Shown in pieces: positions 644 through 56,001 of a stretch of DNA of 64,000 bases; position 1 is the stretch's first letter, and each line of letters starts with the position of its first letter. The notes under the pieces were generated by a model. That model saw only the letters and a list, made by a program, of their open reading frames with translations, did not search any database and was not told the origin of the DNA. Position numbers and translations under genes: made by a program. This DNA is from a virus, in IMG/VR virus record IMGVR_UViG_3300035670_000022, positions 32,001-96,000 of that record, one strand, 5' to 3'.

Positions 644-881
644 GATTTAGCTCCTTTAGTCCTTTTTTTGTTAGTCGATAAGGCGCGCGTCCAACTATGC
701 AGTCCTTGCGTCTCAGACTTTCTAGTAGAGCCACGGTCTTTTCATGGGAAAAGCCGCAGTCTACAGGAAAGCCTAGTTCTTTATCCTGGGGAAAGGCGCT
801 AAGAACGAGATACTCTTCTTCACTTAGAGTGCTGAATCCGTATCCTTTCAAAGCAGCACCTCCACACAAGTTGGATGCCAA
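591..881 (-). CDS. Small winged-helix-like protein inserted between the two polA parts
   Basis: 96 aa. LSEEEYLVL...LLESLRRKDCI...YRLTKKG resembles a wHTH wing. Overlaps both polA parts. Confidence 0.6.
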   Translation of the reverse strand: MASNLCGGAALKGYGFSTLSEEEYLVLSAFPQDKELGFPVDCGFSHEKTVALLESLRRKDCIVGRAPYRLTKKGLKELNRGIHQNASKPEDGTCST

Positions 882-5771: not shown

Positions 5772-6314
5772 ATGTTTAGAAATCCAATTCCCCAACCTAA
5801 CGGTTTGGAGCTGGTCTACAAAGGAGAGTTCGAGCAGGATCCAGCGTCTGATTTTGTCGTCGACTTTGTTGATAAGCATAACCACAACATGGAGCATCTC
5901 GATAATGCTCTAGGGGACATCGCTGTTTTGAGAGCAGAGATGGCAATACTCGCTGCTCGGGGGTTGTTAAGTGGCTTCGTTAATGGCGGGTTAGCTGGAA
6001 CACCGCCTTCTGTAGAGGAAGAAAATCCGTTGAGTATTTCAAAGATGTATGTCACGCCGATTACTTACAAGGATACGTTGCCGGTTTTATCAGATGGCGA
6101 CTCAGACCCTGGGCTGCCTTCCGATCCCTGTCGCTCTTCTGTTAATCCTTATATGGTTCTTTATGGTGGCATAGACCCACCTCATTTACAGTTTGAAGAC
6201 CTAGACACTTCTAGTGATCCAGAAGACCCGTGTCCACATGGAGATGACTTTGCTGATCCTAATGACCAACCTGTTGAGGATGAAGGACATAATCCGGATG
6301 GGGGTGTTTACTAA
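5772..6314 (+). CDS. Hypothetical acidic/Pro-rich protein, probably structural
   Basis: 180-aa ORF heading the tail gene block. Confidence 0.65.
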   Translation: MFRNPIPQPNGLELVYKGEFEQDPASDFVVDFVDKHNHNMEHLDNALGDIAVLRAEMAILAARGLLSGFVNGGLAGTPPSVEEENPLSISKMYVTPITYKDTLPVLSDGDSDPGLPSDPCRSSVNPYMVLYGGIDPPHLQFEDLDTSSDPEDPCPHGDDFADPNDQPVEDEGHNPDGGVY

Positions 6315-6381
6315 TAGGTTGATAAAGACGTAGTCAGAATAGTGCGACACTTGATTTAGATTTCAAATCCGTTTTTGCGAT

Positions 6382-9300
6382 ATGAACTGCCCTACAGGAT
6401 TTCTTTGGTATCAGAAAGAAGAGAATCGGTTCCTTCTTAACGAGTCACAAACGCCAGATGGCTGGGCGCCTCTACCAGTCTCTGTTCATCCTAAGGACTT
6501 GAGTAAGGAAGATTTAGAGGCGTTAGCGGAGTCTATCAGCCGAGGAAGTCAATATACTATCCACGTTGACAAGAATTGTCCGTACGCTTCAGACGCTAAG
6601 GACAATAGAGGCAACTCTAGGTTTAGACCTTTTCGCTCTATTGAGCGGGCTTTAATAGAAGCGGCGCGGCGATCGTTCGTCGTCGGTAACACTGCTTCTG
6701 GTGGAGCGGATATAACCCAACGAATTTCTATTCATGTAGCTGCTGGAGAATATGAAGTTGAGAATGGCTACGGCGGACAAATATTTCAATCTGACTTTGA
6801 TCAACGCCAGGACGCAGCGAAGCTGTTAATTGCTAACCGCGACTATCTGGTAGAAGTTGCTTACACTTCCTATCAATCTGACCCGTTGTTTGCCCAAGTG
6901 TTGACAGAGGCTGAAGTGCTAGCCTGCAAGCGGGATTTAAGCTTCTTTGTTGATGCAGTCGCTAAAGACATTGCCGACACTGGCAACTTCTTTATGGTTC
7001 AGGCGGCTCGGACTCTTTTTACCACGCCGGGTGCGTTCATTCCTGCTTACTCTTCTTCTCCTAAACGGCAGAGTACTTTGGAGGCTATTCGGGTATTAAG
7101 AGAAGTATCTCGAGTTGTTATTAAGAATCAAGCGGAAGAGAGTAAAGGTGGGATTAGACTGCGGCATATCACTCCTGACCCGACTTCACTTACGAATCCG
7201 TATCAGGAGATTCAACTAGTCTCAGACAGTCTTTATGACATTCTGATTGATACTTTAAGTGGCTCAGTTGACCCGTTTGCTCTAGAGGTTAATCCAGGAA
7301 GCGATACAGCGAACTTCCCTAATGAGGGAGAGCCTGACGACAGAACACTGCGAGCATACAACAGCGTATACACCCCAGGAATTATTCTTCCTAGAGGTGT
7401 CTCTATTATTGGCTCTGACTTACGTAAAGTCATCATCCGTCCCAAGTATGTGCCTGCGGCCCATGATACGACAGTTGGTCGATCAGCAATCTTTAGGATG
7501 ACTGGCGGGAACTTCATATCTGGGCTCACTATCATGGATAAGAGTGGGCTATCGGAGTCGCATCACAAACTTTCCTGTTTTGAGTTCTGCACTAACGGTG
7601 ATCTTGTTTCCTATTACAACAAGGTTGCTTTAGCCTTCCAAGATAGCTCTAAGTTTAACCGTCTTCAAGATGCTGCTGGCTTGATCAAGGCAAACATCAG
7701 TTGGATTCAGAAGAAGACGTTTAAGTCTTTTGTGGCAGAGACTAGTAATCAGAAGAAATATCTAAACATATTTGAGGCTGAGATACCTGGGTTGTTAGCA
7801 GCTATTGCTATTAACTGCACCAAATTCGGTAACGAAGCAGTCTTAGACTTTGCTGACCGCTTTAAGAGATATCATATCGATCCTATTGAAGATCAGGCTG
7901 CTCTAGACAATGCTTTGGTCTTTTACTCTTCTCTGTTTTCACAGTTAGAGTTATATCTGCGTAAGGCTGTGACTAATGAGGCTAATCCGGCAGAGGGTGG
8001 TTATATCGACGAACGCATTAAAACCGACGCGGCTAGTCCGTCTAACCCATGTCAGGATGTGCAGTCTATTATTAACACCTTTATAGATATCATCCTTAAT
8101 ACTCTTAGAGGGGCAACTATTCCCAGAGTTGGTTTCTTTCCTTGGACGGTATTTGATGTTGGTCCTACGGCTTCTGAAAACCAAATTGTAGGTGCTGCTG
8201 GTCAGAATCCGATTGAAGGCGCTTCTCCTTATGTCTACTCAGTCACCCTCCGCAGCCGCTGGGGGATGTGCGGCATCGATGGGGATGGGAGTATTGTCAC
8301 CGGGCTTAAGTCTTTTCTTGCGGCTCAGTTTACTGTTATCTCGATGCAGTCTGATACTCGGTGTTTCACTGCGCTAGACGTTTTAGGAGAGGTAGAAAAA
8401 CGTTATATAGGGACTCGCGCTGCGGATGCGTCTGACTATCGCCACTTTGGCTATAGAGCGACCAATGGAGCCTACGCGCAGTTGGTTAGTTGCTTCTGTA
8501 TTGCTCCTGCAATCCATTTTTGGACAGCTAGTGGTGGTGAGATGTCCATTACAAATAGCACCAGTAACTTTGGGGATGTAGCTCTCTATGCTGAAGGGTT
8601 CTTAAAGAACGGAGAGGGCGGGGGAGCCTATCCTCAAGACCAGGGACACCGTCTTCTGGGTATTAAGAAGCCTAAGGCAGTTAGCCTCATTGAACGGATT
8701 TTTGTCCTGGGTTATCTAAAAGCAGGGGGCACTACGGTAGACCCTTCTGATAGCGCCAAGGGGACGATTACTATTACAGGCGAGGCTAATACCCACGGTT
8801 ATAACATTACTAACCCTGAGTACCCAACTCGTATTTACGCTCGGGTCTCTGGGGGTGTAGTAGCCGCAGAAGTTATTTCTCACAGTCTTAATTCTAATAA
8901 TGAGACAGTCTTTGAAGTAAAGTATATCGATAACTACGCGCTGAACTGGGTGGCTTCTGAGTACGACGTTAATTACCGTCGTGGATTAATTGGGTCTGCC
9001 ATCTATTTTGAGCGCTATGTCGATGTCCGCAGCTATGAAGATACTCTTTATCATTTAATTATTGAAAAGGCACAATCTTCTACAGAGAAGCGTCGGGAGC
9101 CTGTTTCAAAATACATTTTGCGGCTTTCTAGCGTAGCTAGTGCTCTTGACCAGCCTTTTCGCTCTATGTGGGATCCTACTAGAGGGCGGGCTCCGCTGTA
9201 TTTTATTAATAGTGCGACTGAGACTACTGCGATTCAGCCCTTCGAAGGCAAGACGAACTACGAGTTAACACCTTTATCTGCTTACTCTAATATTGAGCGG

Positions 9301-39284: not shown

Positions 39285-39407
39285 TTAGACCTCCTTTAGT
39301 CTTTTGATTAACTGCTTGGTTTTAGCCTTAACGGCTTTGAACTTGGCAGGAGCAAGGCGCTCCCGCTTCTTCTTGGCACCATCACGGTGCCAGTGTTTAA
39401 CAATCAT
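39285..39407 (-). CDS. 40-aa Lys/Arg-rich peptide
   Basis: Hand-translated MIVKHWHRDGAKKKRERLAP...; ATGA coupling to the upstream ORF and GAGG RBS. Confidence 0.55.
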   Translation of the reverse strand: MIVKHWHRDGAKKKRERLAPAKFKAVKAKTKQLIKRLKEV

Positions 39408-39533: not shown

Positions 39534-39695
39534 CTAGTTAGAGTTAGCTAAACAGTTTTCGAGATGCTCCCACACAGCTAGGAGCTGTGCTTTTTGTTGG
39601 GCAATTTCGAATGCATCCTCGTACGATGTACGAGGCGCCGCAGCTAGAAGCTGCAAATATTCGAATAGTGTTATGTTCTCCGGCAGTGTATGCAT
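39534..39695 (-). CDS. 53-aa hypothetical protein
   Basis: Hand-translated MHTLPENITLFEYL...; AGGAGG RBS. Confidence 0.6.
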   Translation of the reverse strand: MHTLPENITLFEYLQLLAAAPRTSYEDAFEIAQQKAQLLAVWEHLENCLANSN

Positions 39696-39714
39696 GGAGA
39701 CCTCCTATATAATG

Positions 39715-40738
39715 ATGGACAATACCCCCAGGTGGACACGATCCACAATTCCAGCCTACCTATGCGGCACTGGGGATCAACTTCGACTTCCTCACGGGTC
39801 TAGCCTTGTACAGTCGTCTAGATATACATTCGGGAGATATCAGCCTATCTACTGCTACCAGTAGCCAACACACAACGTTTTCCCTAATCCCCCGTAGAGG
39901 ATTGTGGGTATCGATCCCACGCCGTTGTGTGGATATATAACTTCTATCCGAAGATATGGCGGCTGGATACCCAGCTTGTGACCAGTCTTTACACGTAGGA
40001 AGGGCGACGGCCCTATAAAGTAGTTGTGGAAATGCGCCGTACAGGTACTGCCCCTGTCTACGCCACCTTATGAGGGTGGAGCCTCCCTTCTCGGCCAACG
40101 GCGCGGGTGTCCGGCTTAGTGTGTACAGCACTTGCCGGGCGTGTGTGACCTATAGAGCCTGTAATCCAACCAGTCACGTTCTCGTTGGCAGACCGCTATT
40201 CCCTTCCTCTACAAACTACTCAGAATAGCCAGTGTAGTTTGCCCCTTAACCCCAGGGCGGGTATACCTCTTAGATGACGAGTCTAAGAGGGATTCTAGCA
40301 GTTCGCTCAATTGAACGTTCACTATCGAGACTCCTTAGTGTGTTAGTGCCTCGATAGCTAGCTAGGAACTACTTATATTTCTGCCCGAAGGGCACGGATC
40401 AACACACTACCGATCTTTCAGTCACGAGGGCGACGGCCCCATTATAAAGATGTGGAGGGGTTTGATACCCCCAAGGATTCTGCAGTTGGTCAGACTACAT
40501 ATCCAACCACAGCTTTGTCTGTTCAAAGTGTCTTGCTCGCCATATCAGGTCCGCACACTCTTTTAGGTGTATATAGCCTTGCGAGCATCACCTAAACTAC
40601 AATCTTGACTGACCAAGCCCTAAGATTCTGACAGATTTGACTGTATCGCGTTACTTCCGCGCACACATCAACGTATCCATTTTAGAAGGCATTATCCCCC
40701 GAATACTAGAGGGGCCCATATGAGAGTTATCTCTCATG
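39715..40738 (-). ncRNA. Structured non-coding RNA cassette (about three ~300-nt units plus one tRNA)
   Basis: No credible ORF, dense hairpins and several 7-9 bp loop pairings. Begins right after a promoter motif. Repeated GGGCCGTCGCCCT unit starts. Confidence 0.6.
40033..40104 (-). tRNA. tRNA with CAT anticodon (probably Ile2, possibly elongator Met) and non-canonical T-loop
   Basis: GCGCCGT/ACGGCGC acceptor, GCC/GGC D-stem, CCACC-CTCATAA-GGTGG anticodon arm, ACAGG-GGCAGTA-CCTGT T-arm, A73. CCA is not encoded immediately after. Confidence 0.82.
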
Positions 40739-40752
40739 TACTCTTCTCTGTT
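40739..40752 (-). promoter_or_regulatory. Putative phage promoter AACAGAGAAGAGTA driving the ncRNA/tRNA cassette
   Basis: Exact copy. Confidence 0.75.
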
Positions 40753-40800
40753 GTAGAAAAAGAAAGAGTATCGGTTAAGACGACACTCTTCTTTGACTAA

Positions 40801-41187
40801 TTAAGCGAAAGATTCAGTTACAACTTTGACTTCAATAAGCCGTTCCCAGCCTGCGAATTCAAAGTAGAACTCACCTTCTCGGTTGACCCGATTGTTTTTA
40901 GCAAAGATAACCGGGCGGTCTCCCGCAATGCCTAAGACTTGTTGTTGTAAGTTGATAGGGCAGACAACTGCCAAGATATCAAACTCAGCTGCTATAGCTT
41001 TGAATGATTCGATTTGTACAGTATTAGGTGCCTCACCATGAGGCGTAATTTCAGCCTCAAACTGAACGTGTACATTAGGCATGGTGCCGTTGACTTGTAC
41101 AACTTCGATAGCGCCTAGTTTGGCTTTTAAAGCAGTAAACTGCTCATAGCTCATTTCATGGCGACTGAACCACATTACTTTGGTCAT
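40801..41187 (-). CDS. Small alpha/beta protein, weak resemblance to Csx16/Csx15/Csx20-type ring nucleases
   Basis: WFSRH...EQ and DILAVVCPINL. The ORF is solid (AAGGAG RBS); the function is speculative. Confidence 0.45.
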   Translation of the reverse strand: MTKVMWFSRHEMSYEQFTALKAKLGAIEVVQVNGTMPNVHVQFEAEITPHGEAPNTVQIESFKAIAAEFDILAVVCPINLQQQVLGIAGDRPVIFAKNNRVNREGEFYFEFAGWERLIEVKVVTESFA

Positions 41188-43452: not shown

Positions 43453-46400
43453 TTACGAGAATTGGGTCTCCATCCAATCCAAAGCGATATCTGAAGTGTG
43501 GTAGGAGTCGACTAGCATGCTCCACATTTGCTCTGATGTAAGTTCGGAGTTAAATTCACAGTCTGTTGCAAAGTAGACTAAATCAGCTTTAGGAAAGCGA
43601 CTAGGTCCGACATACAAAGCAGCTTTATGCTGAGCCGGAATAGCTGTTACTTTACCTTTGCTGACGTAATACATATGCAGAACTCCCGGGCGGTTTATAG
43701 TCAAACCCTGGCTTTTCATTAGAGTCATAGCAAAACAAGGGTGCGCCGGGATTTGTCGGAAGGTTCCTATGGGACGACCCGACTTATCTTTAGGCCCTTC
43801 AAAGTCTGCATAGTCTAGAGTGATGACTTGCTTAGTAGTGTCTAGACGCACGTTGATAGAGTTTTTACCTAGTTTGGTAACTACTCCTGTGCTTCCATTA
43901 GCTGCAATAAGTGCACCGCCTCCGTTCTGTATGTTCTTACGAATCATTACAGGCATATCGACGCAGAAAGTCATCTCTTCTTCAATTGGATTAAAGATAG
44001 TGACAAACTCTTGCTTCTCGCCGTCGTAGGCTTTCTTCAGATACCAGTCTCCGAATTTACCTGTGACGTGGGCGCGATACGACTTGTTGTCTGCACCGTT
44101 AGCGATCATCTCAGCGGTCTTGCGGCTATTGTGCCGTTTTACTCCGATATTGTTGAAGTAGATGTGGATAGCATCTTCCGGAGCTTTGGTGGTAACACTA
44201 GCATCAAAGCGGTCTTTGATTAAGTTACCTTTCACGCCGGTTAATTGCAGCCGGTCCATACGTAACAGGTTAAGACAATCTACCCAGGCTTTATCTCCGT
44301 CGGCACGGATATTGTGCTTCAGGTTTATCATGACGAAGTCTCGGCGCTTAACAAAACTGCCGTAGCTGACATTGTTCTTTGCCCCTTTGATGAACACAGG
44401 TTCAAAGAAGAGGGAGCCTTTAACAGGTAAGAACTGCATTGGATCCCCTACTAACAGCCATTGAATGTTGATACCTTCTTCTATCGCAGCATCTTCGATG
44501 ATGTTTAAGAAGCGGTTGTCTACCATGCTGACTTCATCAACGATGACCATGAGTGGGCGTTTACCCAGGTAGTTCTTGGCGCTCTTGAAGAAGCGACTGT
44601 CTTTAACGTCTGACTTGAGTAGGTGGTACTCTTCGTACTCGCTACACTTTTTGCTCTCTGTTTTTTCGAATCCCAATTTGAGACCGAACATTGAGTTAAT
44701 TGTGCCGTCCCCACCGACGTTCATCACTGAAGTACCTGTAGAGCCAACAATGACGTAGGGGAGTTTGAGTAAGTCAAAGATGTGACGCGCTACTTCGACA
44801 CTGTAAGACTTGCCGCCTCCGCCTACACCGGTCAGCATAATATTGCTGCCATTAATAGCTTCAGCTACGACGTCTAACTGTCGAGCAGTCATGGTTTCTA
44901 GAGCGGGTAGGTAAGACTCCTCGTCTATAGTCGCATTGACGTTGGTGATTGCGTCGATAGCGGCTTGTAGAGCCTCGGGCTTACGTTTACGGTCTGCTTC
45001 TATCTCCATTTGGACTTTGGTCTCCTCTTGCTTAGCTTTTTTCTGTGCGTGTTTGCGTACCTTTTTAAGTGAGGGTACGATCTTTTTGCCTTTGCTGTTG
45101 ACAACAGGCTTAACAGATCCTACCTCTACTGTTTTAGGTTCTACAGATTTCTGTTTTTCCGCAACAGGGGTGGGAGTCTCTACTTTAAGAGACACTGCTT
45201 TAGAAAGAGGGATGTCTTCTGGTTCATCCTCGGGGGCATACATCTCAAAATCAGAAGATGTATCTTCGTCCTCGATTTGATCTTCAGACTCTTCAGGCGC
45301 TGTTAATACGTCAGACGCGTCTTCTGTGGTCATAGGTTTATCTTCGACCACTTTTACCGATGACAAAGAGACAAAATTAGAGATAGGGATCTCGTCATCC
45401 ATCTCGTAGTCATCATCAAAGTATACGCCTGTAGACTGATCTTCTTCTGTTTCGGGAACAGCAGCGTCAAAGCTGTCGTCTTGAGTACTTGTACTTTTCT
45501 CTGTTTCTACTAGAACCACAGGAATAGACTTGTATAAGTCGGTGATCTTTGTATGTAGAGTCTCAGGCATATCAGGCACTGTCTCAAGAATCATTAGCAA
45601 CATAGCAGCAACTTGGTTACCAGGATCAGGAGTCGACATAGGCTCTGCTTTGATAGCGGCAGAAGTGGGTTCAATCACTTCCGGCTGGTTGGGAGTAGTT
45701 GTTACCTCAACAGCAGGTTGCTCGTCAGCTGCTTCATCAAGTTCTATTAGAGCAGCTAACAAGTCTTCCTTCTTGCCGTTTAACTTAGGAACGGTATGCC
45801 CCGCGTCACGGTACTCTTTTAGCGCCTCTTTGATATCAGAGTAAGACAGAGAGGAGTACACGTCAGAAACAGAAGAGTCAACATCAGCTTCGACTTCAGC
45901 TTCGACTTCAGCTTCGACTTCAGCTTCATCTACTGGTTTAAGAGCAGGGTGATTAGTGTCGACCATCCAGTTGAGCATCTCAATGATGAGATCGCCGTGG
46001 CAAGGCAAAGGTGCGCAGAAGCAGACTAAGTCTTTTTGCTCTGCGTAGAGGCGGGCTAACTCATTCAGCACAACGCTGTCATTAGCATCTACCTTCTCTT
46101 GTAGCCAAACACGGTACAGTTCATAACACTCTTTCCGTGTGCCGTGTTTTCCAACGACAGCCTTGTTTGCTAGAACGCTACCTTTCTTGCCTTTACCAGG
46201 ACGTCCTATATACTCACCAAATACGCTGTCACCGTTTTTGATGTTTAAGACTTTCATAGTGCAGTGTCCTTCAGAAGATGTAGGAGGCTCAGAGTCTGAT
46301 TTAGGTTTAACCATACGTACAGTGACGTTATAGCGGACACCTTCACCACCTTCGTTGCCTTCATAGCCGTGGCGGGCGTAGCGTTTGTTGCCATAGAAGA

Positions 46401-49400
46401 CAATCAAATCACCATCGCCTACCTCGTATTTCTCTCCGTCTATTTGGAAGATACCGCTCTGGCCGAAGCTGAAAGACACAATAGGAGCATCTACTTCTTC
46501 GTCTTTATCGACGTGAAGGTTCAGCTTCTGTGCGCCTGCATATCGATTAATTAGACAGGTTTGAGCCTCGTACCCATCAAAGATGTCCAGTTGGGCGACT
46601 ATCTTTTCAGCAGTCTCTTTTAGAATGTTAGGCATCTCAACCACAGGCGAACCAGACGGCTGAGTGTTAAGGTATCGACCTTTACCTTTATTCCATACCC
46701 AGAATTGCTGACCAGCACAGGTATAACTGTAGCTCTTGGCTGTAAAGCGCGTCTTCTCACCATCTTCAAAGGTCTCTTCAATGGCTGCTCGTAGCTCATC
46801 ATAGATTCCCTCGTCTTGGCAATAGGATTGCTGAATGTACAGCCCGTCTTCGGTGTATACCGTCAACTCTTCTTTGTCGGACTCGGTGCGAAGCGCGTCT
46901 CGAACTTTCATAAGAAGGACGCCTTGCATGTTCTTACCTTGACGTTTCTTATTCACGCCCCAGAACGTGTCCCAGGGAGAGAGGTGTACAAGGTCGATAT
47001 CTTCTGTTTCTAACAGTTGAGTACGAGCAGGCTCATGGCTGAATTTGCCAAGCAGGACCTCGTACATTACATCGACTTTTACTTGTTCCCAGTCTTTTCG
47101 TAGCCTTACTTTTGCACCTTTAGCCTTTGCCTGTTTACCGTTCATAGCCGCGAACTCTTTAATAAGAGCGTGGCTCGGGTTGAGCACTTTGGCACACTGA
47201 TAGGCTCCCTCTGCTGTTGCATACTCTACGCCTTTGTATGTACAGGGTGCCCCCAGGAAGTTACTAAACTCTTTATACGTAGGCGTATAGGAGTTAAATA
47301 AGATGCAGTCGCCTTCCCAAGTGTCTTTATCTGCCGGATGCTCTTGTTGGGCTTCTACTTCCTGTTGTGCTTTAAGCATAGCCACGTTGATCACAGTGGT
47401 GTTCTTAACACGTTTGATGTTCTTCTTGCTACCAGGAGAAACGCCGTCCCAGATGACGAGACTCTCATCACAGTTACGATGCATCTTTTCATCCCGAGCA
47501 GTGAAGTCACCGTAGACAGCATAGGTTTCAAAGTCACCTACATTGTTGCGGCATCCTTTGCGGGAAGAGTACCAAACGCGCACGTTGGTGACACCTTGCT
47601 CAAAGAGATAGCTTTGTACAAGCATGTCTACACCAGCAGCATCACCAACGTTGAAGTTAAAGCCCTGATCGATATAGCTGTCGATCACATCTAAGGCTTC
47701 TTCAGGTAGACGTTTGATAGAACGGCTGCCAGAGATCACCACTTGGGTGTGATTTACCTCTAACTCTTCCGTAGACGTATCCTCTTCAGTGTCAGAAGAG
47801 TCAACAGATTCACCGCCGTCTCCATCGTCGTTAGGCTCATCGTCGGTCGGCTCTACACCGCCGTCAGAGTCATCTTCATCAGAGTCGTCTTCTTCTTCTT
47901 CGGTAATACCATCGTTAAAGTTATGGATCACAGAGAAGAAGTTGTCTTTACTCTCTTCGACAGAGTGGATCTCTTTCAAGAAGAAGTTTAGGTCGGCATC
48001 AGACCACTCGAGAGTGCTGATTTGAGTGTAGTCGTACATCTCTTTACCGAGAACTTCGTCTAGCTGAGAGAGAGACATTAGCGGAACGTTGGTTTGAAGC
48101 ACTTTAGCCCCTGTGGGGTGAGACTTAAGTGCGTTTAGCCACGCTATACTTTCTTGATAGATGACAGTATCCCCAAAGTAGAAGTTACCGCGGCCACCTT
48201 GGAAGATCGTATAAAGCAAGTAGGAAATCCCGTAGGTGGGGGTCTCTTTACCTCGCTTAACTACGTAATAGTCTTGCAGGAGGTGCATAGCAATTGTTAC
48301 CTCTTCCGCTAATTCGCAGTTAGCGCCGAGTTCAGCCAACGTTTCTTCTACTTTGTCCTCTAGGGCACGCTCTAAACGCATTTCTCCCAGCAGGGTTTCT
48401 AGAACTGTGCAGTTAGCAACAGCAACCTCATCGGTAACATTGCATTCTCGCAGGTTCAGAACCATGAGGTCGATCGTCTTGGTGCGAGGCATATCCAGAC
48501 GGGTGCTACGTAGACGATCATAGGCTTCTGCTACATCAAAGCGAATAAACTCGTCATCCCAGTTGGATAGGATTCCATGTAGCTCTTGAGTAACTTCAGC
48601 ATTGGCAAAGTCTTTAATCTTAACGGACTGTTTGCTGCAGCCGTCGTAGATAGATTTACCAAACATGATCGGCTTTAAGAATCGTTCCCAGAGAGATACA
48701 CCGCCGGGGCTGAATCCGCCGAGCATAATCTCGTACACTTCTGCCAAGACCAGCATGAGTTTGTTGATCTGAGTTTGACGATACTTGTCTAGCTCTAAAG
48801 GCACGAATGCACTTAGACCTTCAACACCGTCTTCACCAAACAAGTCCAACTTATCTAACTCGCCGATGATGCTAACCGCAAGCATACCGAGCATGTATGC
48901 AGCGTACATAACACCAACACCGACGTGCTGAATGCTGTATGCCAGGAAGTTGTATTTGACTAGATCTGAGCTGTTGATCATAGCCTTCTCTGGCAGTGCT
49001 TCTGCTAACTTGTTGATAACTACAGATGCATCTTTGTAAGACTTGATGGTGTAGTGGTCAGCAGCGTAATCCCCGCATGTGGGAGAGAACATGTCCATAC
49101 CTATAGCAGCGGAGCGCAGTTCACGAACCTTTTCATAGGTGGTGATGTGCTTAAGGCTCAGGTGCTTACAGTGAGTGATAAAGTGGTTATCACCATCATC
49201 GTCACCACCGTCTAGGTTGACAGACATAGCACTGACGCCGAATTGTACGGGGCTAATCTCGTACGCAAGAAGAGTATTGTCTTGAACCTCATCAGCAAAA
49301 GGTACACGTCGTTGTCCAAGATAGACCTCGACAGTTTCTTTACCGGTTTCGGTCTCGACTTCAACTTTCTCCCATACCTCTTCGATTAAACGAACCCGTT

Positions 49401-52400
49401 CAATCGGACCCATAGGCATAGGCGCACGGTTACCGCACGTAATTACACCTTCGGCTACAGACTGGCGGTCTAGAGGAATACCGCTACGTAGACACTCTTG
49501 ATATGGAGAGGAGACGACGTTGGTTTCTAGAATCCAGACTTCTCCTACAGGAATAGCAGGGTGACCGATACGCTTCGCACCGACTGCTTTATCGCCAGAG
49601 AAATACTTGCGGGAGTTCTTAGATGTAGCTAGAGAGTTAAGCACACCGCCGACCTGGTTAAGGGCGATCTGTTGCTTTTCGCTACCACCATTGATACACG
49701 GGATAAGTATTTCGAAGAAGAACATGGAGACGAAGTCCAAGTTATCATCGCTCTTGCGAGTCAGCTTAGAAAAAGCCAGCATGGCAGGGAGCCACATGGA
49801 CACTTTACCTTCTCCGGTTTCAAAGACGAAGACCATATCCTGAGTTGCTTCGGCAACCAGGCGGAAGAGGTTGTCTTGATGCGGATCAATCTGTCCAGGC
49901 TCAATACCGACTTTGCGTAGACGCTCATCCATAAGATCCTGACACTCGTTGCTGGTGTCATCTCCACCAAAGCAGATGCCTTCTTCATCAACGATGATGG
50001 ACACTACTTTGAGATTAGGATTAATGGTATTCCCAGCATTGAACGCGGCTAGCGCTTTAGCACGGTACAGCGCTTCTTTACCGCAGGACACCATACGACG
50101 CTGCTCAGCCAATACATCTTCGTCGTCCCCAGCTACAATGCTCAAGGACATGATATAAGGCAACAACTGAACGGAGGTCGTTACGGCTTCTGCTACCGTA
50201 GAAGACTCGAATAGCTCTACGTTGTAGAGTTGAGCTTCAGGTACGGAGAGGTACATTACGCCACGTTGTGCGACTTCTACCACTTTTCCGTCTTTAAGAA
50301 CAAAGGCGAGAATGTTGCTTTCCCACTCAATTTCTTTCTGCTCAGAGACTACGTAGAGGTTATCTCCTAAGTTGGCTAATTCAGGTAGGTACTCTAAATA
50401 GTTCTCTACGTGATACCACGCTGCCTTCCGTGCTTTTTCGTTCTCTTCGGTGTCAGGAAGTAATCCGGCGGCTACTTTCTCTTGGTAGAGGTCATACATA
50501 ACACGACCCATACCTTCAGCCTGTATCCAGTGAAGCCAGCGGGCTTGACCGAAGATGCTGTCGAAGTACTTATACATCTCATCATAGATACCAGCAGCAA
50601 CAGCAGCGGGCTCGATGATAAGCACGGGTTTGCCGTCGACCAGATTCTCGTGTCCTACCAACTGACGGTTGATGTCAGAGATATATTCACGAAGGGTCTT
50701 AACCACGTCTGTTTCTACTTCGTTGTAGAACGCAGTGTTGGCAATTATGAAGCACATCGCATAGCCCAAGTCGAGCTTAAGGCTATCTTGCAGGTGTAGT
50801 CCGTGTACAGTGATCTCGTCCGAGTTAAGGTCAGAGTTTAGATCATTGAACAAGATAGCAGGCGTAGCCGTAAAGAACTGCGACTTGTTAACACTACGAG
50901 ACTTCATATCAAACTCGCGGCGTTTGATGAAGTACTCGATGCTGAGATACTCAGTGCTGTTATCCATACCGACAACAACGCGCCAGCGGAAGTAGGTTAA
51001 CTGACCCTCTACACGGTGTTGATGGTAGATGGGAATCGTTCCGTGTACGCCGAAGAGGATCTCTTTACCTGTTCCGTTAACGAGCACCTCATCTTGCGGA
51101 GTGACATACATCCAGCCGTCTTCGCTCTCTACACTGTCCCAGGTGTTTTCGATCACACCGGTAACATTAGTTTGAGTAAAGTCGAACGGAGAACCGTCTA
51201 CTATATCAAACGTGTTACGGACAATTAGAATGCGTTGATCCGGGTTTGCTTCCGGTTTGTCTTTCTGTTCACCCAAGAACGCGGACATACCAGGCAGGTT
51301 AACGTGGCTCGGCGCATAGGCAGTCTTATCTAACCAGCCGTAGGTGGCATACTTCTGGTCGATAAGTTTAGCCGCAGAAGGCTGCTCGTCTTTGACGCTC
51401 TCAGCTTGAGCCATCCACAAAGACACCCGCTTCAGGAGTTTCTTCGCCTTCAACGAGTTGACGATTACTTTTCCTGCTTCGATTTCGCAGCCAAAGTTGC
51501 TGACGATCTTAGCGAACAGGTTCGGTGCATGCTTGCTGACCAAGTCTAGATTGACGTGACCCAAGGCACCAGCAACAAACTGTCCTTTGGTGTGGTGGAA
51601 GTCTAACCCATACTGCTCATGGGCCATTTCCATCACAATGTCCATCACTTCAGCAATTTCGATAGAGTCATCAAAGACAGCTGCAGTTTCGATCATTTGA
51701 AACTCTTCGTCTATGTCTGCCTCTACACCGCTGTAGCGTTCAGGTAGGACTTTAGCAGCCTTACCCTCTAGAGCAACCCACTTCCCATTACTGTTCAGCG
51801 GTGTGCGCTCTTTGAACATCACGGTGGAGAAGGTGTTGATGAGCAAGTGGTGTGCAGCACCGTTTTGGTCTAACACTCGGTCCGTAGTCATCTTAAAGAT
51901 GTTGCCCATCTTTTGCAGACATGACTTCACATTCTCTAATGTGGTAGAGAAAATGCCGGCGCTGCCAGACCAGTTAGAGAGGATAGGCAAGTACACGAGC
52001 CAGATGAAGTACATAAACATACTCAGGCTGGTGACTAACTTGATTTCTACCTCGTAGGGGCTGCCCTTAGGATCGGCTTTCTTCTCTTCTTTTGTCTTTT
52101 TACGTCCGTTGACAACAAGACAGCTATTGAAAGCACGACCACGCCAGTCATAGACAGTACCGTCGTCATCGAAGTAGAAAGCAGCAGCGCCGTCTATCTT
52201 AAGCGCTTTCATGCCATCTATCTCTACGAAGTCCAAGACTCCTTTGATATCGACAGCCTTACGGTTACGGCTCCGCTTTGTCTTCTTACCAGCGACTTCC
52301 ATCATGTCTTGAATGATGGTGATAACACCTTCAATCTCAGACAGTTGCCAGTCGTAGTCTAAGATTGGCATGTCGATGGTTGAGCAGGCATACTTGTCCC

Positions 52401-55400
52401 GCTCAGAGCAGAACCCACGTAAGTAGTAGGCTACTGCGTAAGCAGCTTTTTGAGCAGCACTACATTTCGTAGGGGGCTCTTGTCCCCGGAACAGCTCTTC
52501 AAAGACTGCCGTTTCGTTCAGCATCATGTCGTTTACGACTTCTTCTACTGTATAGAAGTCCTCGCTACGATTTCCGCTGGTCGGGTGATTTAACGCCTCG
52601 TACAGACTTTGTAGCTCTTCAGCGTAACCAGCTAGAACTTTGGGTTCTGCTTTAGCCGCAGGAGGTGTCGGAGGAGTAGAAGTGACAGGAGGAGTAGCGG
52701 GCGGAGCAGCTATTTTAGAAGGAGTAGAAGTAGCTACTTTAGAAGGAGTAGACTTTGTCACTTCCGCTTTAGACTTCACGCGACGACGACCACTCTTAGG
52801 TAGAGAAGTAGTAGTCTTAGCAGAGCGCTCTAAGAACGTGAAGTAGTTGTTATCGCTCCGGGGAGTTTCGAAGTCGATTAACTCTTCTACTACATCGCAC
52901 GGAACGAAGTAGGCTTCAATCCGGTCGCAGTACGGACGGTATTGTCCTTGACTGAGAACACCGTTCTCGTCTGGACGACGATTATCCGTCAGAATATCTA
53001 CTCGTCCGACGAGAAGCAAATAGTATTGCTCCACTTCTAACCCAGGGATGCCTCCATGTTCGCTCTGCAGGTTATCTAACGAGTTGTGGACAACGATCGT
53101 TTGCCCATGTTTTTCTAGAGCGGAAACAAACCGTGTATTTCCTGTGTACACGGCTTTACGGATGATGTTCCGAACGGAAGAAGCGGTAGCGCCTGCTTCC
53201 GCACGACCTGCGACTTTGTCTTTAAGGTCGTGCTCGTTATTAACCAACGACTCGAAGTTCATATGGTGCGACACCTTGTCGTTAAACACCACATTTTCGA
53301 TGTTGGTGTAGGCAGCATCGCGGAACTGCCAACTTGCCTTCTTGGCGTTGGCGATCGGAGCATACAAACGAGCCGGGGTCGCTCCGATAGTAGAAGCAGT
53401 CCAACCTTCTTTAGCTTCTTGTTTGTAGTCGAAGCCTAAGAAGTTGCTGATGGGCAGCACCCGATGTTTGCTGTCGTCCGCCGCAGCATATAACTCGGCA
53501 TAGTGCGGTTTTGCTTTCGGCACAGGGTTAAAGTGTGCGTTAGCGTTACACCGCTGCTCTCCGTAGCGACAGAGGACTACATAGAGAGGATCGCTCTCTT
53601 GAATGGGAGCTGCGTCTACGTGCATTAATGTGAACGCAGGGATGCAACCCATCTCTTCAGGAGACTTAGTAAAGTGCATAGGAGCACCTACTTTTATCTC
53701 CATGTTTTTGTTTGCGCTATTACTGGTGCGACGCTTCATTGTTTGCTCCTTATTAATGGTAGCCAGTCCTATTTCTAGGGGTGTTACGCCTAGTTCGCTG
53801 ACAATGTCAGACCATTTAGATCCGTTTGTCAGCAAGGACCGAATGTTGCTTGCTGTCTCAGCGTCTACCAAGTCAGCTGGGTCAAAATGACCAGCACGGT
53901 AGACCTCCAGCAAATAGCTGGCGACAGTATCATCCTTGGTCTCACTCTTCGCCTCCTTACGGTAGGTAGATGCCAAGTCTGCTAGCATGTCCTCTAGCTT
54001 TTCTTCTGTTTTCAAGACACGTGTCCAGATGTCAATCACGATCTTGTGACGATGACTTAGCTGATTTTGTTCAGCTTTTGGTTTTTCTGTCTTTTTACTC
54101 TTCTCTGTTTTTGCTACAGGCTGTTTGTTAGGCACCCCGTAGTTGAGAGCCACTTCTAGGGAAGTAACTCCCAATTCCGTCTCTAGGTCTTTATAGGCCA
54201 CTCCTTCTGCCTTCAGATCTTGAATCTGCTCGTGTATCTCTGTAGATACATAGGCAGAGCAGTCTACCAACCCAGCGTCGTATGCTTTCTTTAGATACCC
54301 GACGATGGTTGAGTATGCCGCCTCACTTTTGTTAATTGCTCGGTAGCGTCGGACTAAGGAGTCCAACTTCTGCTGCAGATCGACGTTTTTAGCGTCTATC
54401 TTCTCCCACAGTTCAGCTATCTGCTGAATTGATGATGGAGTTTTCTGTGCGGACGTGGTCGGAGTTCCTCGTTTTTTGGCATACTTACTCATTGGACGCG
54501 GAGTTTTGCTCCGCTTGAAGACCATAGTTGCCTCCGGTACACCCTCTGCCGATGCAGCACATCGTGCCTCGGCGAGAGCCATAAACTCGGCCGGTACGGC
54601 CACGGGTTCAGATTCTGAACCGTTCAGAATCTCAGCCATGATGGCTGTCCCTGCGGCGTAGGCGGCTTCTGCCTTTTGTTCTTCCGTCTTATTGGCTAGG
54701 TAGACGGTTTTGTCTACCTTTTTGATGTTGCCAATCATCTTCCGACCTTCCGCCGCCCGGCGACGGTTTTGGATAGCGAGAGGCAACTCCGCCTCCTCTT
54801 GGGCGCGAAGGGCCCGTTGGCGACGGACTACAGAAGCCGGGATGGGGGCCTCGGTGCCGTTCGCCAACCAAATGGCGTTGTTACCTGCACGGAGGGCAGC
54901 GGACTTAGCGGCTTTGGTGATGACCGCATACTTAGCCGCCCGCTCGGATGCAATGTAAGCAGCCAGGAGTTTAGCCTCCGCCCGACGTTGGGCTTTGGCT
55001 AGTTGCTTCTCATACCCGGACTTAGTCTGGGGTTTGAGGTTACGGCGTTGTACCGCTTTGTTGCGACGTTGACGTTTAACCCGCTGGGTGCGGGCAATTG
55101 ATTGATTCACAGTCATTGATTTACGGACACGACGACGTGCCCGGGTAGAGGTGGTACCAACAGTGGTAGCGATGTCGGCAATGACATCAGCTACGGCGAC
55201 CATTACGGTCACGTTGGCATAGGCAAAAGTGCCCACACCGCCTGCACGTTTTTGTGCAGTGCCTTTGCGGGGGGCAGTGAGACGGAGAACCGCGTCCAAG
55301 GTGAATGCGGCACGGTTAGCCGTGCGGCGCTCAGTGTAGTGAGCAGAGATGACATCAGAGATGTCATTGGCTACGGCACCAGCGAATGCCATAGTAGCAG

Positions 55401-56001
55401 CGGTAGTGAGGGTAGCAGGGGCAAAGCGTACAACTTTGTGCGCAGTGTAGACACGGGGAGCACCCGTGGGGGTGCTGACGGTGTGGGTAGGGGCAACCCA
55501 GGAGGGTGCCGGAGTGGTGAATACACCTTTGAATCCGGGGGCAGCTTGCTTAGGAGCAGCTTTGGGAGCCCACACTACACGAGTGTTCCAAGCTGCTGCT
55601 TGGGCTGCCATAGGGTCAGCAACACCCCATCCTTTGATCTCCGCCATGCGGAGGTCAATATCACCAGCAGCGGTGATAGCGTCAGCGGTAGCTACAGCGG
55701 CAGCTACAGAAGAGGAAGCAGGAGCCTTGTAGCCAGTCCAGGTGCGGACTACATCCACCTTCTTGCCTTTCTTCTGCACGTGTACGTGCACTTTCCCGTA
55801 GTAGGAAAGGAACTCTTGGCGGGGTAGGCGGGCACCTACCGCAGAGTTCTTAATTACAGCGCCGGCGTTCCAGCGTTGGCTGGAACGGCTCCAGCTGTTA
55901 GTGTGTACGGTGCGCGGGGAGACCTCACGGACAGCTTGCTGAATCGAGCGAGCGAAGAAAGAGATAACGGAAACGGAAACGGACATTTTGAAGTTAGACA
56001 T
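43453..56001 (-). CDS. 4182-aa polyvalent protein: 2x HTH, putative single-chain two-barrel RNA polymerase, SLOG, NADAR, AlkB-like dioxygenase, DUF4326 and Pif1-like SF1 helicase
   Basis: DMKSRSVNK (~50881-50910), NRAP (49420-49431), GGDDDGD (49189-49209). ISGSR..VGDAAGVD; FSNF..TAEGAYQ..WG..GKNMQG.LLM.VR; LINRY..HVD..HG..RYNVTVR; YIGRP..LVCFCAPLPCHGD; GVGGGGKS, DEVSM, GDPMQF, KSQGLT. Confidence 0.85.
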   Translation of the reverse strand: MSNFKMSVSVSVISFFARSIQQAVREVSPRTVHTNSWSRSSQRWNAGAVIKNSAVGARLPRQEFLSYYGKVHVHVQKKGKKVDVVRTWTGYKAPASSSVAAAVATADAITAAGDIDLRMAEIKGWGVADPMAAQAAAWNTRVVWAPKAAPKQAAPGFKGVFTTPAPSWVAPTHTVSTPTGAPRVYTAHKVVRFAPATLTTAATMAFAGAVANDISDVISAHYTERRTANRAAFTLDAVLRLTAPRKGTAQKRAGGVGTFAYANVTVMVAVADVIADIATTVGTTSTRARRRVRKSMTVNQSIARTQRVKRQRRNKAVQRRNLKPQTKSGYEKQLAKAQRRAEAKLLAAYIASERAAKYAVITKAAKSAALRAGNNAIWLANGTEAPIPASVVRRQRALRAQEEAELPLAIQNRRRAAEGRKMIGNIKKVDKTVYLANKTEEQKAEAAYAAGTAIMAEILNGSESEPVAVPAEFMALAEARCAASAEGVPEATMVFKRSKTPRPMSKYAKKRGTPTTSAQKTPSSIQQIAELWEKIDAKNVDLQQKLDSLVRRYRAINKSEAAYSTIVGYLKKAYDAGLVDCSAYVSTEIHEQIQDLKAEGVAYKDLETELGVTSLEVALNYGVPNKQPVAKTEKSKKTEKPKAEQNQLSHRHKIVIDIWTRVLKTEEKLEDMLADLASTYRKEAKSETKDDTVASYLLEVYRAGHFDPADLVDAETASNIRSLLTNGSKWSDIVSELGVTPLEIGLATINKEQTMKRRTSNSANKNMEIKVGAPMHFTKSPEEMGCIPAFTLMHVDAAPIQESDPLYVVLCRYGEQRCNANAHFNPVPKAKPHYAELYAAADDSKHRVLPISNFLGFDYKQEAKEGWTASTIGATPARLYAPIANAKKASWQFRDAAYTNIENVVFNDKVSHHMNFESLVNNEHDLKDKVAGRAEAGATASSVRNIIRKAVYTGNTRFVSALEKHGQTIVVHNSLDNLQSEHGGIPGLEVEQYYLLLVGRVDILTDNRRPDENGVLSQGQYRPYCDRIEAYFVPCDVVEELIDFETPRSDNNYFTFLERSAKTTTSLPKSGRRRVKSKAEVTKSTPSKVATSTPSKIAAPPATPPVTSTPPTPPAAKAEPKVLAGYAEELQSLYEALNHPTSGNRSEDFYTVEEVVNDMMLNETAVFEELFRGQEPPTKCSAAQKAAYAVAYYLRGFCSERDKYACSTIDMPILDYDWQLSEIEGVITIIQDMMEVAGKKTKRSRNRKAVDIKGVLDFVEIDGMKALKIDGAAAFYFDDDGTVYDWRGRAFNSCLVVNGRKKTKEEKKADPKGSPYEVEIKLVTSLSMFMYFIWLVYLPILSNWSGSAGIFSTTLENVKSCLQKMGNIFKMTTDRVLDQNGAAHHLLINTFSTVMFKERTPLNSNGKWVALEGKAAKVLPERYSGVEADIDEEFQMIETAAVFDDSIEIAEVMDIVMEMAHEQYGLDFHHTKGQFVAGALGHVNLDLVSKHAPNLFAKIVSNFGCEIEAGKVIVNSLKAKKLLKRVSLWMAQAESVKDEQPSAAKLIDQKYATYGWLDKTAYAPSHVNLPGMSAFLGEQKDKPEANPDQRILIVRNTFDIVDGSPFDFTQTNVTGVIENTWDSVESEDGWMYVTPQDEVLVNGTGKEILFGVHGTIPIYHQHRVEGQLTYFRWRVVVGMDNSTEYLSIEYFIKRREFDMKSRSVNKSQFFTATPAILFNDLNSDLNSDEITVHGLHLQDSLKLDLGYAMCFIIANTAFYNEVETDVVKTLREYISDINRQLVGHENLVDGKPVLIIEPAAVAAGIYDEMYKYFDSIFGQARWLHWIQAEGMGRVMYDLYQEKVAAGLLPDTEENEKARKAAWYHVENYLEYLPELANLGDNLYVVSEQKEIEWESNILAFVLKDGKVVEVAQRGVMYLSVPEAQLYNVELFESSTVAEAVTTSVQLLPYIMSLSIVAGDDEDVLAEQRRMVSCGKEALYRAKALAAFNAGNTINPNLKVVSIIVDEEGICFGGDDTSNECQDLMDERLRKVGIEPGQIDPHQDNLFRLVAEATQDMVFVFETGEGKVSMWLPAMLAFSKLTRKSDDNLDFVSMFFFEILIPCINGGSEKQQIALNQVGGVLNSLATSKNSRKYFSGDKAVGAKRIGHPAIPVGEVWILETNVVSSPYQECLRSGIPLDRQSVAEGVITCGNRAPMPMGPIERVRLIEEVWEKVEVETETGKETVEVYLGQRRVPFADEVQDNTLLAYEISPVQFGVSAMSVNLDGGDDDGDNHFITHCKHLSLKHITTYEKVRELRSAAIGMDMFSPTCGDYAADHYTIKSYKDASVVINKLAEALPEKAMINSSDLVKYNFLAYSIQHVGVGVMYAAYMLGMLAVSIIGELDKLDLFGEDGVEGLSAFVPLELDKYRQTQINKLMLVLAEVYEIMLGGFSPGGVSLWERFLKPIMFGKSIYDGCSKQSVKIKDFANAEVTQELHGILSNWDDEFIRFDVAEAYDRLRSTRLDMPRTKTIDLMVLNLRECNVTDEVAVANCTVLETLLGEMRLERALEDKVEETLAELGANCELAEEVTIAMHLLQDYYVVKRGKETPTYGISYLLYTIFQGGRGNFYFGDTVIYQESIAWLNALKSHPTGAKVLQTNVPLMSLSQLDEVLGKEMYDYTQISTLEWSDADLNFFLKEIHSVEESKDNFFSVIHNFNDGITEEEEDDSDEDDSDGGVEPTDDEPNDDGDGGESVDSSDTEEDTSTEELEVNHTQVVISGSRSIKRLPEEALDVIDSYIDQGFNFNVGDAAGVDMLVQSYLFEQGVTNVRVWYSSRKGCRNNVGDFETYAVYGDFTARDEKMHRNCDESLVIWDGVSPGSKKNIKRVKNTTVINVAMLKAQQEVEAQQEHPADKDTWEGDCILFNSYTPTYKEFSNFLGAPCTYKGVEYATAEGAYQCAKVLNPSHALIKEFAAMNGKQAKAKGAKVRLRKDWEQVKVDVMYEVLLGKFSHEPARTQLLETEDIDLVHLSPWDTFWGVNKKRQGKNMQGVLLMKVRDALRTESDKEELTVYTEDGLYIQQSYCQDEGIYDELRAAIEETFEDGEKTRFTAKSYSYTCAGQQFWVWNKGKGRYLNTQPSGSPVVEMPNILKETAEKIVAQLDIFDGYEAQTCLINRYAGAQKLNLHVDKDEEVDAPIVSFSFGQSGIFQIDGEKYEVGDGDLIVFYGNKRYARHGYEGNEGGEGVRYNVTVRMVKPKSDSEPPTSSEGHCTMKVLNIKNGDSVFGEYIGRPGKGKKGSVLANKAVVGKHGTRKECYELYRVWLQEKVDANDSVVLNELARLYAEQKDLVCFCAPLPCHGDLIIEMLNWMVDTNHPALKPVDEAEVEAEVEAEVEADVDSSVSDVYSSLSYSDIKEALKEYRDAGHTVPKLNGKKEDLLAALIELDEAADEQPAVEVTTTPNQPEVIEPTSAAIKAEPMSTPDPGNQVAAMLLMILETVPDMPETLHTKITDLYKSIPVVLVETEKSTSTQDDSFDAAVPETEEDQSTGVYFDDDYEMDDEIPISNFVSLSSVKVVEDKPMTTEDASDVLTAPEESEDQIEDEDTSSDFEMYAPEDEPEDIPLSKAVSLKVETPTPVAEKQKSVEPKTVEVGSVKPVVNSKGKKIVPSLKKVRKHAQKKAKQEETKVQMEIEADRKRKPEALQAAIDAITNVNATIDEESYLPALETMTARQLDVVAEAINGSNIMLTGVGGGGKSYSVEVARHIFDLLKLPYVIVGSTGTSVMNVGGDGTINSMFGLKLGFEKTESKKCSEYEEYHLLKSDVKDSRFFKSAKNYLGKRPLMVIVDEVSMVDNRFLNIIEDAAIEEGINIQWLLVGDPMQFLPVKGSLFFEPVFIKGAKNNVSYGSFVKRRDFVMINLKHNIRADGDKAWVDCLNLLRMDRLQLTGVKGNLIKDRFDASVTTKAPEDAIHIYFNNIGVKRHNSRKTAEMIANGADNKSYRAHVTGKFGDWYLKKAYDGEKQEFVTIFNPIEEEMTFCVDMPVMIRKNIQNGGGALIAANGSTGVVTKLGKNSINVRLDTTKQVITLDYADFEGPKDKSGRPIGTFRQIPAHPCFAMTLMKSQGLTINRPGVLHMYYVSKGKVTAIPAQHKAALYVGPSRFPKADLVYFATDCEFNSELTSEQMWSMLVDSYHTSDIALDWMETQFS
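54096..54109 (-). promoter_or_regulatory. Intragenic copy of the putative phage promoter
   Basis: Exact AACAGAGAAGAGTA inside the giant ORF, upstream of TAAGGAG-N6-ATG at 53739. Confidence 0.55.
54613..54629. promoter_or_regulatory. 17-bp palindrome TTCTGAACnGTTCAGAA, copy 3 (intragenic)
   Basis: Arms extend to 10 bp (54611-54631). Confidence 0.5.

Follow-up and report, generated by a model that had tools for sequence, protein, structure and literature searches.

Here we show that a gene-free stretch of about one kilobase in a phage genome carries a structured RNA of the type found in phage transfer RNA (tRNA) clusters, together with a member of a non-canonical tRNA family. The stretch, hereafter the cassette, lies in a 64,000-nucleotide (nt) window comprising bases 32001-96000 of the 155.9-kb IMG/VR phage record IMGVR_UViG_3300035670_000022, which is estimated to be 88% complete. 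It fills the gap between a 128-aa gene (stop at 40801) and a 53-aa gene (start at 39695); the flanking genes are on the minus strand, and the cassette is read on that strand with coordinates descending. Positions are those of the window unless a contig is named by our L-number handle. In reading order the cassette consists of a promoter-like motif, a leader (U0), a possible tRNA-like element, a second unit (U2), the tRNA, a 3' unit (U1) containing a conserved RNA that we call RNA X with a tRNA-like tail (TLD1), and a ribosome-binding site (RBS). We consider it probable that the cassette is a promoter-driven, non-coding transcription unit giving several stable RNAs that are cut at tRNA-like elements, although its transcription and processing, and all functions of its RNAs, are what we infer from sequence. 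The first-pass annotation had described a promoter-driven cassette of pseudoknotted RNAs surrounding a tRNA; about half of that idea holds and half is unsupported.

The 3' unit occupies approximately 40016-39725 and would give an RNA of ~215 to 290 nt, running from 39942 or 40016 to 39725. Homolog collection and covariation analysis, the check proposed in the first-pass annotation, supports this unit. On a 205.5-kb contig (L146) bearing the same odd tRNA, the 215 nt just before that gene align to window positions 39942-39728 with a score of 135; RNA X ends 6 nt before the tRNA there and is on the opposite side of it from that seen in the window. RNAalifold applied to window and L146 gives 59 pairs, 12 changed on both sides, seven changed on one side, and none broken. 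When a natural variant (contigs L027 and L215 of one sample, with a 20-nt overlap) is added and the structure is fixed beforehand, 94.4% of cells are paired versus 33-45% in slid controls, and 13 pairs are double-changed versus 1-4 in slid controls; none of 500 shuffles reaches the observed value. A covariance model of a 123-nt core, built from window and L146, was used to search contigs that came from a profile search with the 53-aa protein. It finds an independent third lineage at L267:372-492 with 91.1 bits (E 2e-25), compared with 139.8 bits for the window and 137.8 bits for L146, and a partial match in L266, where the last 26 model positions are present at the contig start. Over the three full sequences 16 of 55 pairs are changed on both sides, versus 3-4 in slid controls and with 0/500 shuffles as extreme, but the tested structure was derived from the same sequences and all contrasts with slid controls are consequently inflated. 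The independent 91-bit match in L267 is cleaner evidence than these contrasts. Pattern scans with two conserved blocks of RNA X returned only L146 and chance matches in coding DNA. The comparisons show a predicted secondary structure of the 3' RNA that is conserved across lineages, and by the same comparisons the 3' unit appears to be clearly under structural selection.

The conserved core of RNA X (39942-39822; L146:3936-4056 on the minus strand, L267:372-492 on the plus strand) contains helix P3 (39931-39923/39877-39869), hairpin P3a (39920-39904), the loop of which is the T-loop-like AUCGAUA, UCCGAUA, or UUCGAUA, and hairpin P3b (39903-39886), with a UACG or UGCG loop; these three elements hold eight pairs changed on both sides. 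Supported helices also make up a hairpin cluster at 39866-39825. Helix 8 (39818-39785) is an imperfect hairpin bearing the block GACCCGUGAGGAAGUC, which is identical in window and L146; its outer pairs change from GAC/GUC to GGU/ACC in variant L215 and to GGC/GCU in L267, where the inner pairs are CUC/GAG. Two pairings picked out in the first-pass annotation, an 8-bp match (39870-77/39923-30) and a T-arm-like hairpin (39904-39920), are recognizable as P3 and P3a, and each is kept through both-side changes. The new family of ~300-nt structured RNAs proposed there is upheld for the 3' unit, which is conserved and absent from Rfam, but not for the 5' unit.

RNA X is predicted to end in a 52-nt tRNA-like minihelix, TLD1 (39776-39725), recognized from a covarying stem and from its minimum-energy fold. 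TLD1 comprises a 7-bp acceptor-like stem, a small D-like hairpin, and a T-arm-like hairpin (39746-39732), with no anticodon arm. Its acceptor-like stem reads UCCCCAG/CUGGGGG in the window and GGGCUGG/CCAGUCC in L146; four of the seven pairs have both bases replaced and every one still forms, and the minimum-energy folds of the two sequences have the same shape. L266 keeps TLD1 with one mismatch. A G3-U70 pair in the acceptor-like stem is present in L146 and, by reading, in L267, and is not present in the window. In L267 (positions 520-750), ~150 nt extra are apparently placed between the D-like part and the T-arm of the RNA X tail, with a duplicated GGTACAAGGCA block. MALAT1 mascRNA and the tRNA-like domain of transfer-messenger RNA (tmRNA) are familiar tRNA-like processing elements. 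Plant mitochondrial t-elements are likewise tRNA-like processing signals (PMC1920247). TLD1 resembles t-elements and mascRNA in lacking a decoding anticodon arm and in standing where a longer RNA meets the sequence behind it, and its shape and position, on which the likeness is based, would suit cleavage by RNase P or RNase Z. Identity with tmRNA was considered and rejected: there is no Rfam or ARAGORN tmRNA match, and no conserved tag frame was seen on reading the aligned window and L146 sequences. A phage tmRNA on another contig (L136) has an ordinary T-loop.

The tRNA embedded in the cassette (40104-40033), as the first-pass annotation had it, is real, conserved, and non-canonical. Like canonical tRNA(CAU) (elongator Met, initiator fMet, and lysidine Ile2; RF00005) it has a full cloverleaf with U8, U33, G53-C61, and C56, including a perfect 7-bp acceptor stem with G1-C72 and A73, a 7-nt anticodon loop with anticodon CAU, and 5-bp anticodon and T stems. 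It differs in its T-loop, which is GGCAGUA and not UUCRANY, and in its D-loop, AGAAGGG(A), which is built around AAG and not G18G19. The minimum-energy fold of 40104-40029 is the cloverleaf. ARAGORN with default settings calls no tRNA in the whole genome, and 40104-40033 is reported neither by Rfam nor in a whole-genome RF00005 search; only the mitochondrial mode of ARAGORN finds it, while relaxed thresholds give equal noise on both strands.

A pattern combining the anticodon loop CUCAUAA with the T-arm GG-GGCAGUA-CC retrieved 49 loci from IMG/VR, the spacer lengths of which cluster at the tRNA value and are not spread over the allowed range. After removal of duplicates and four poor cases (L108, L131, L149, L150), 34 distinct sequences remained. 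In the aligned cloverleaves 98.3% of stem cells are paired, and each of the 14 stem pairs left free by the search pattern is represented by 3-6 pair types. The D-loop is of AAG or UAG type in all members and often a bare tetraloop, most members encode ACCA, and some have a C1-A72 initiator-type mismatch while others, the window copy included, have G1-C72. Several members are part of arrays of canonical tRNAs. The window tRNA is most closely related to that of L146, with compensatory changes in three stems, and the element is unchanged in variant L027 despite differing flanks. These alignments show that the window tRNA belongs, as judged from its predicted fold and covariation, to a conserved phage tRNA(CAU) family. 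ARAGORN calls none of 38 family sequences, and the Rfam tRNA model at its gathering score recovers one of eight tested family loci, several of the missed genes being inside ordinary tRNA arrays. A literature search on the GGCAGUA T-loop and on non-canonical phage initiator tRNAs did not find the family. In a set of 185,579 prokaryote species, approximately ten cloverleaves were seen among the matches listed (n=50), five of them in Acidobacteriota metagenome-assembled genomes, four of these Blastocatellia; with so few prokaryotic cloverleaves, the family looks mainly viral. The Acidobacteriota genes (L225, L227, L232, L234, L249; one contig measures 3.3 Mb) are near-identical initiator-like tRNAs(CAU) with the GGCAGUA T-loop and could be prophage-borne or native to the clade.

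The window tRNA most likely decodes, and our leading guess is that it reads AUA as a lysidine-type tRNA-Ile2. Three observations give hints only in this direction: C4-G69 and C5-G68, which we take to be TilS determinants, would fit a lysidine tRNA-Ile2; ATA makes up 21.7% of the isoleucine codons of the phage; and in L267 ARAGORN calls a tRNA-Ile(UAU) ~1 kb downstream of the structured RNA, at 88 nt an odd length for tRNA-Ile. No GGCAGUA-type tRNA was found beside RNA X in L267, and the core covariance model matched none of the loci of the other tRNA-family members. Since RNA X adjoins the odd tRNA in L146 and is ~1 kb from tRNA-Ile in L267, a tRNA-related role is the most economical guess for it.

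The cassette is without coding capacity. No credible open reading frame (ORF) exists in any of the six frames of the 1105-nt gap (39696-40800), as had been noted at the outset for the sequence downstream of the motif at 40739, and the ~975-nt counterpart block in L146 is also free of ORFs. Each minus-strand frame of the cassette holds 12-27 stops of all three kinds, such that reassignment of a single stop codon opens no frame. It might still be supposed that small proteins or an alternative genetic code are hidden here, given a 37-aa ORF (40322-40209) that is the only one in the cassette with a strong RBS and a 123-aa ORF (39760-40131, minus strand) that is the longest. The latter, however, has a codon score of -0.13 as opposed to +0.06 to +0.29 in the flanking genes, and in natural variant L028 all changes in the 37-aa ORF are non-synonymous and include one TAG stop. 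Pfam gave no match to cassette-internal ORFs, tblastx of the cassette against all fetched loci and blastn and tblastn against GenBank phages gave none either, and substitutions between window and L146 display no 3-base (codon) periodicity. With stops of every type in every frame, negative codon scores, and this nonsense change, we regard hidden coding as highly improbable.

The upstream 128-aa gene is followed by an intrinsic terminator (40791-40763; an 11-bp stem and then a T run), and directly after it stands the promoter-like motif AACAGAGAAGAGTA (40752-40739). The genome carries the first 13 bases of this motif ~22 times without a mismatch. Most of these copies read on the minus strand, most are placed 20-50 nt ahead of a start codon, and many come directly behind a terminator; the copy at 40752 is the only one noticed that precedes a kilobase without a gene. 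Promoter activity of the motif, which the first-pass annotation had assumed in placing the cassette behind a promoter, is inferred. A 7-bp hairpin (40737-40720; pairing probability 0.88) is right behind the motif. In L146 the equivalent block is preceded, as read by eye, by a terminator-like GC-rich hairpin with a T run and a sigma-70-like box.

Two units opening with the same GGGCCGTCGCCCT hairpin had also been described. The underlying 30-nt repeat, GGGCCGTCGCCC, is real: it is composed of TCCACA..TTTATA..GGGCCGTCGCCCT, has only two copies in the 156-kb record, at the start of U2 (40456-40427) and of U1 (40030-40001), and is surrounded by similarity reaching ~85-100 nt (score 44 versus 22 +/- 3 in shuffles). 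Neither the hairpin nor the shared ~85-100-nt module is recognizable in the aligned part of L146, however, and exact-pattern scans of IMG/VR and Joint Genome Institute (JGI) metagenomes for the repeat gave chance matches or nothing. Variant L027 lacks 10 bases of copy 1, including most of the TTTATA box, and the TCCACA..TTTATA boxes are thus dispensable in at least one natural lineage; they could represent promoters, processing sites, or scars of a duplication.

Upstream of the tRNA the comparative record is thinner. The leader U0 (40738-40457) is identical in all natural variants and may end in a tRNA-like element of ~69 nt (40513-40445), with a T-arm-like hairpin at 40474-40458 and an acceptor-like helix that pairs at six of seven positions; we treat this element as tentative. 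U2 (40441-40105) has only its first ~85-100 nt in common with U1. In its body (40426-40105) the hairpin at 40290-40266 is kept through an A-U to G-C change in L028, and that at 40132-40118 through a U-A to A-U change in L027, which weakly suggests that the 5' two-thirds of the cassette (40738-40105) is structured. U2 as a structural homolog of the 3' unit is not supported, the core covariance model giving no match; an arrangement of three tandem degenerate units is not supported by alignment statistics. At L027:4079-4252 (approximate; JGI sample 3300036770) a 182-nt insertion at window position 40117/40118, flanked by the direct repeats AAGCCGG and AAGCAGG, ends in a G-rich hairpin with a T-rich tail, and the window-type allele (L104) is present in the same sample.

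An alternative is that the cassette is mostly a decaying tRNA cluster with duplicated spacers, selection acting only on the tRNA and perhaps on the 3' RNA, with U0 and U2 as near-neutral filler. Phages sharing the 128-aa protein have ordinary tRNA-Met genes next to its homolog, T-arm-like hairpins are scattered over the cassette, the variants contain indels and stem-breaking changes (the T-loop of P3a is AUCGAUA in the window and UUCGAUA in L027), a separate tRNA 3' fragment is present in the same genome, and no homologs of U0 or U2 were found. On the other hand, the 3' unit appears clearly to be under structural selection, two U2 hairpins still pair after double changes, 600 nt of filler are rarely kept by phage genomes, and a dedicated promoter-like motif stands in front. 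On balance we think decay unlikely as a general explanation of the cassette. The tRNA fragment just mentioned (L033:10558-10617; minus strand of the phage genome, outside the window) lacks a matching 5' half and reaches 19.5 bits against the Rfam tRNA model. What is present is an anticodon arm of GUG type, the T-arm GTGGG-TTCGAAT-CCCAT, which is canonical, and the 3' strand of an acceptor stem; the fragment may represent either a decayed tRNA or an attP-type core.

In the reading that we favor, a promoter-driven non-coding transcription unit, transcription would start at the 40752-40739 motif and run for ~1 kb before reaching the first gene. The transcript would be punctuated by three tRNA-shaped elements, the tentative one at 40513-40445, the tRNA at 40104-40033, and TLD1 at 39776-39725, at which host tRNA-processing enzymes may cut, RNase P on the 5' side and a 3' endonuclease on the other. 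The tRNA and two or three structured RNAs would thereby be freed and detached from the mRNA of the downstream small genes. The best-defined product would be the ~215-290-nt RNA, which has a core of several helices, carries two T-loop-type hairpins, and ends 3' in a tRNA-like structure.

The first downstream gene is the 53-aa gene (39695-39534, minus strand), which has a positive codon score and an RBS ~20 nt after TLD1. Its homologs occur near the RNA X copies of L146 and L266 and ~1.9 kb downstream of that of L267. As an alternative, the cassette could act in cis, as a long 5' leader of a small-gene operon (53, 39, 40, and 77 aa) with folds controlling mRNA stability, termination, or translation and not giving separate RNAs. 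Consistent with this, the stretch from the motif at 40752 to the start codon at 39695 yielded no terminator-like site, TLD1 ends ~20 nt before the RBS, and a 53-aa homolog directly follows the L266 copy and is near the L146 copy. The link is nevertheless loose, since other genes separate RNA X from the 53-aa homolog in L146 and L267, and a complete, family-conserved tRNA sits mid-cassette, whereas tRNAs are released by processing; we accordingly assign the leader a low probability. Homologs of both the 53-aa gene and a 40-aa gene are common to the window phage and L146. The latter, a Lys/Arg-rich ORF (window 39285-39407, minus strand; L146:3347-3469, minus strand), is probably a real micro-gene, given its conservation in both phages.

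The first-pass annotation had also raised the possibility of one large RNA with an embedded tRNA, and had compared the region with GOLLD and ROOL. A single ornate RNA of ~1 kb in the manner of these families would suit the setting, which is likewise in a phage, beside tRNA genes, long, and ORF-free (PMC5737381), and would suit the many exact long-range complementarities. Neither family is matched, however. Rfam 15 reports nothing relevant in the cassette region (no GOLLD, ROOL, tmRNA, or RNase P RNA) at the gathering score or at E up to 10, and no GOLLD or ROOL match was obtained in the rest of the genome (gathering score) or in the L146 homolog region; known Rfam families thus do not explain the cassette. 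The conserved part is moreover separable, since in L146 it flanks the tRNA at the opposite end and in L267 no GGCAGUA-type tRNA is beside it.

The long-range pairings themselves are no more frequent than chance. All eight sequence relations listed in the first-pass annotation are exact. The cassette holds 54 perfect inverted 7-mers versus a dinucleotide-shuffle mean of 32.5, and 19 inverted 8-mers versus 8.2, but these counts rank it no higher than the top 6-9% when it is set against other 1-kb tiles from this genome. With eight 8-bp matches expected by chance per kilobase, a lone "kissing" match of 7-9 bp is no evidence; the three pairings listed as pseudoknots or kissing loops, though exact, are of this kind and lie in sequence without comparative data. 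The same holds for the 5-bp closing helices (GTGAC/GTCAC; CCTAC/GTAGG), which are exact but at chance frequency, and CCTAC/GTAGG is not kept in L146. Folding z-scores are ordinary: the sliding-window value is -0.91 inside the cassette versus -2.44 outside, and the three sub-units give -1.5, -2.1, and -0.5. Such unremarkable energies mean that thermodynamics alone gives an ornate RNA no support, and we judge a single ~1-kb RNA very unlikely.

Several observations weigh against the non-coding transcription unit that we prefer. The folding energies of the cassette are unexceptional, and when the full length is modelled thermodynamically the cloverleaf is disrupted by a 12-bp helix (40107-40096 with 39927-39916) that competes with it. 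RNA X is known from four or five lineages only, with three full sequences in the counts; its outer helices P1 and P2 differ between alignments, since the two-sequence fold has them and the three-sequence fold lacks them, and in variant L027/L215 two pairs of the tentative P2 and one of P3a are broken. The T-arm-like end of RNA X cannot be aligned in L267, which has the ~150 nt extra. U0 and U2, amounting to ~60% of the cassette, yielded no homolog in other phages, and among near-identical variants stem-breaking changes are as many as compensating ones, in addition to the 182-nt indel and the 10-nt deletion.

Comparison with known systems places the cassette among structured RNAs of phage tRNA clusters. 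GOLLD and ROOL are ORF-free RNAs found in phages or prophages, often beside tRNA genes, and ROOL has an average length of 581 nt (PMC5737381). The cassette resembles them in being located in a phage, with tRNA-like genes adjacent in window and L146 and tRNA-Ile ~1 kb off in L267. It differs from ROOL in that the RNA X module is far smaller, and neither conserved pseudoknots nor a multi-junction architecture on such a scale was shown for it. Phage tRNA gene clusters can also encode stable RNAs other than tRNAs, such as the species 1 and 2 RNAs of T4 and the stable RNAs of T5. Compared by description only, RNA X is like these in being a structured RNA beside phage tRNA genes, presumably co-transcribed with them, and in having tRNA-like ends on which the tRNA-processing enzymes of the host could act; it is larger (~215-290 nt), is built on a conserved multi-helix core of its own, and is found with a non-canonical tRNA.

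Two uncatalogued RNA genes are thus added from one gene-free gap. Because ARAGORN and the curated Rfam threshold miss nearly all tested members of the tRNA family, phage tRNA repertoires, and the codon-adaptation analyses built on them, are undercounted. RNA X with its tRNA-like tail extends the short list of phage tRNA-cluster RNAs, the function of which has been obscure since the T4 era. A more far-reaching and distinctly doubtful idea is that RNA X represents a new functional RNA class of large freshwater-type phages that works with AUA-reading tRNAs. Its partners would then be the GGCAGUA-loop tRNA(CAU) in two lineages and tRNA-Ile(UAU) in the third. The two T-loop modules of RNA X might, for example, bind the tRNA elbow, or RNA X might serve as a decoy or scaffold for a host tRNA-targeting defence or a tRNA-modifying enzyme, in which case the altered elbow of the non-canonical tRNA would be an adaptation to the same conflict.

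The 128-aa protein encoded upstream of the cassette (40801-41187, minus strand) belongs to no Pfam or PHROG family. Its homologs number 27 in metagenomes, and IMG/VR contains 66 related loci, with W6, F7, S8, R9, and H10 invariant, and in several relatives tRNA-Met genes are directly beside its gene. Phages found through these homologs have no nucleotide similarity to the cassette. One of them, L019, contains ORF-free stretches of 2.8 kb (464-3249) and 1 kb (6302-7295) that hold only tRNA-Leu and tRNA-Met genes, have no other Rfam match, and are unlike the window cassette in sequence. Further upstream in the window, a 4182-aa ORF (43453-56001, minus strand) carries NADAR, 2OG-Fe(II) oxygenase (AlkB-like), DUF4326, and AAA_19 helicase domains in its C-terminal third.

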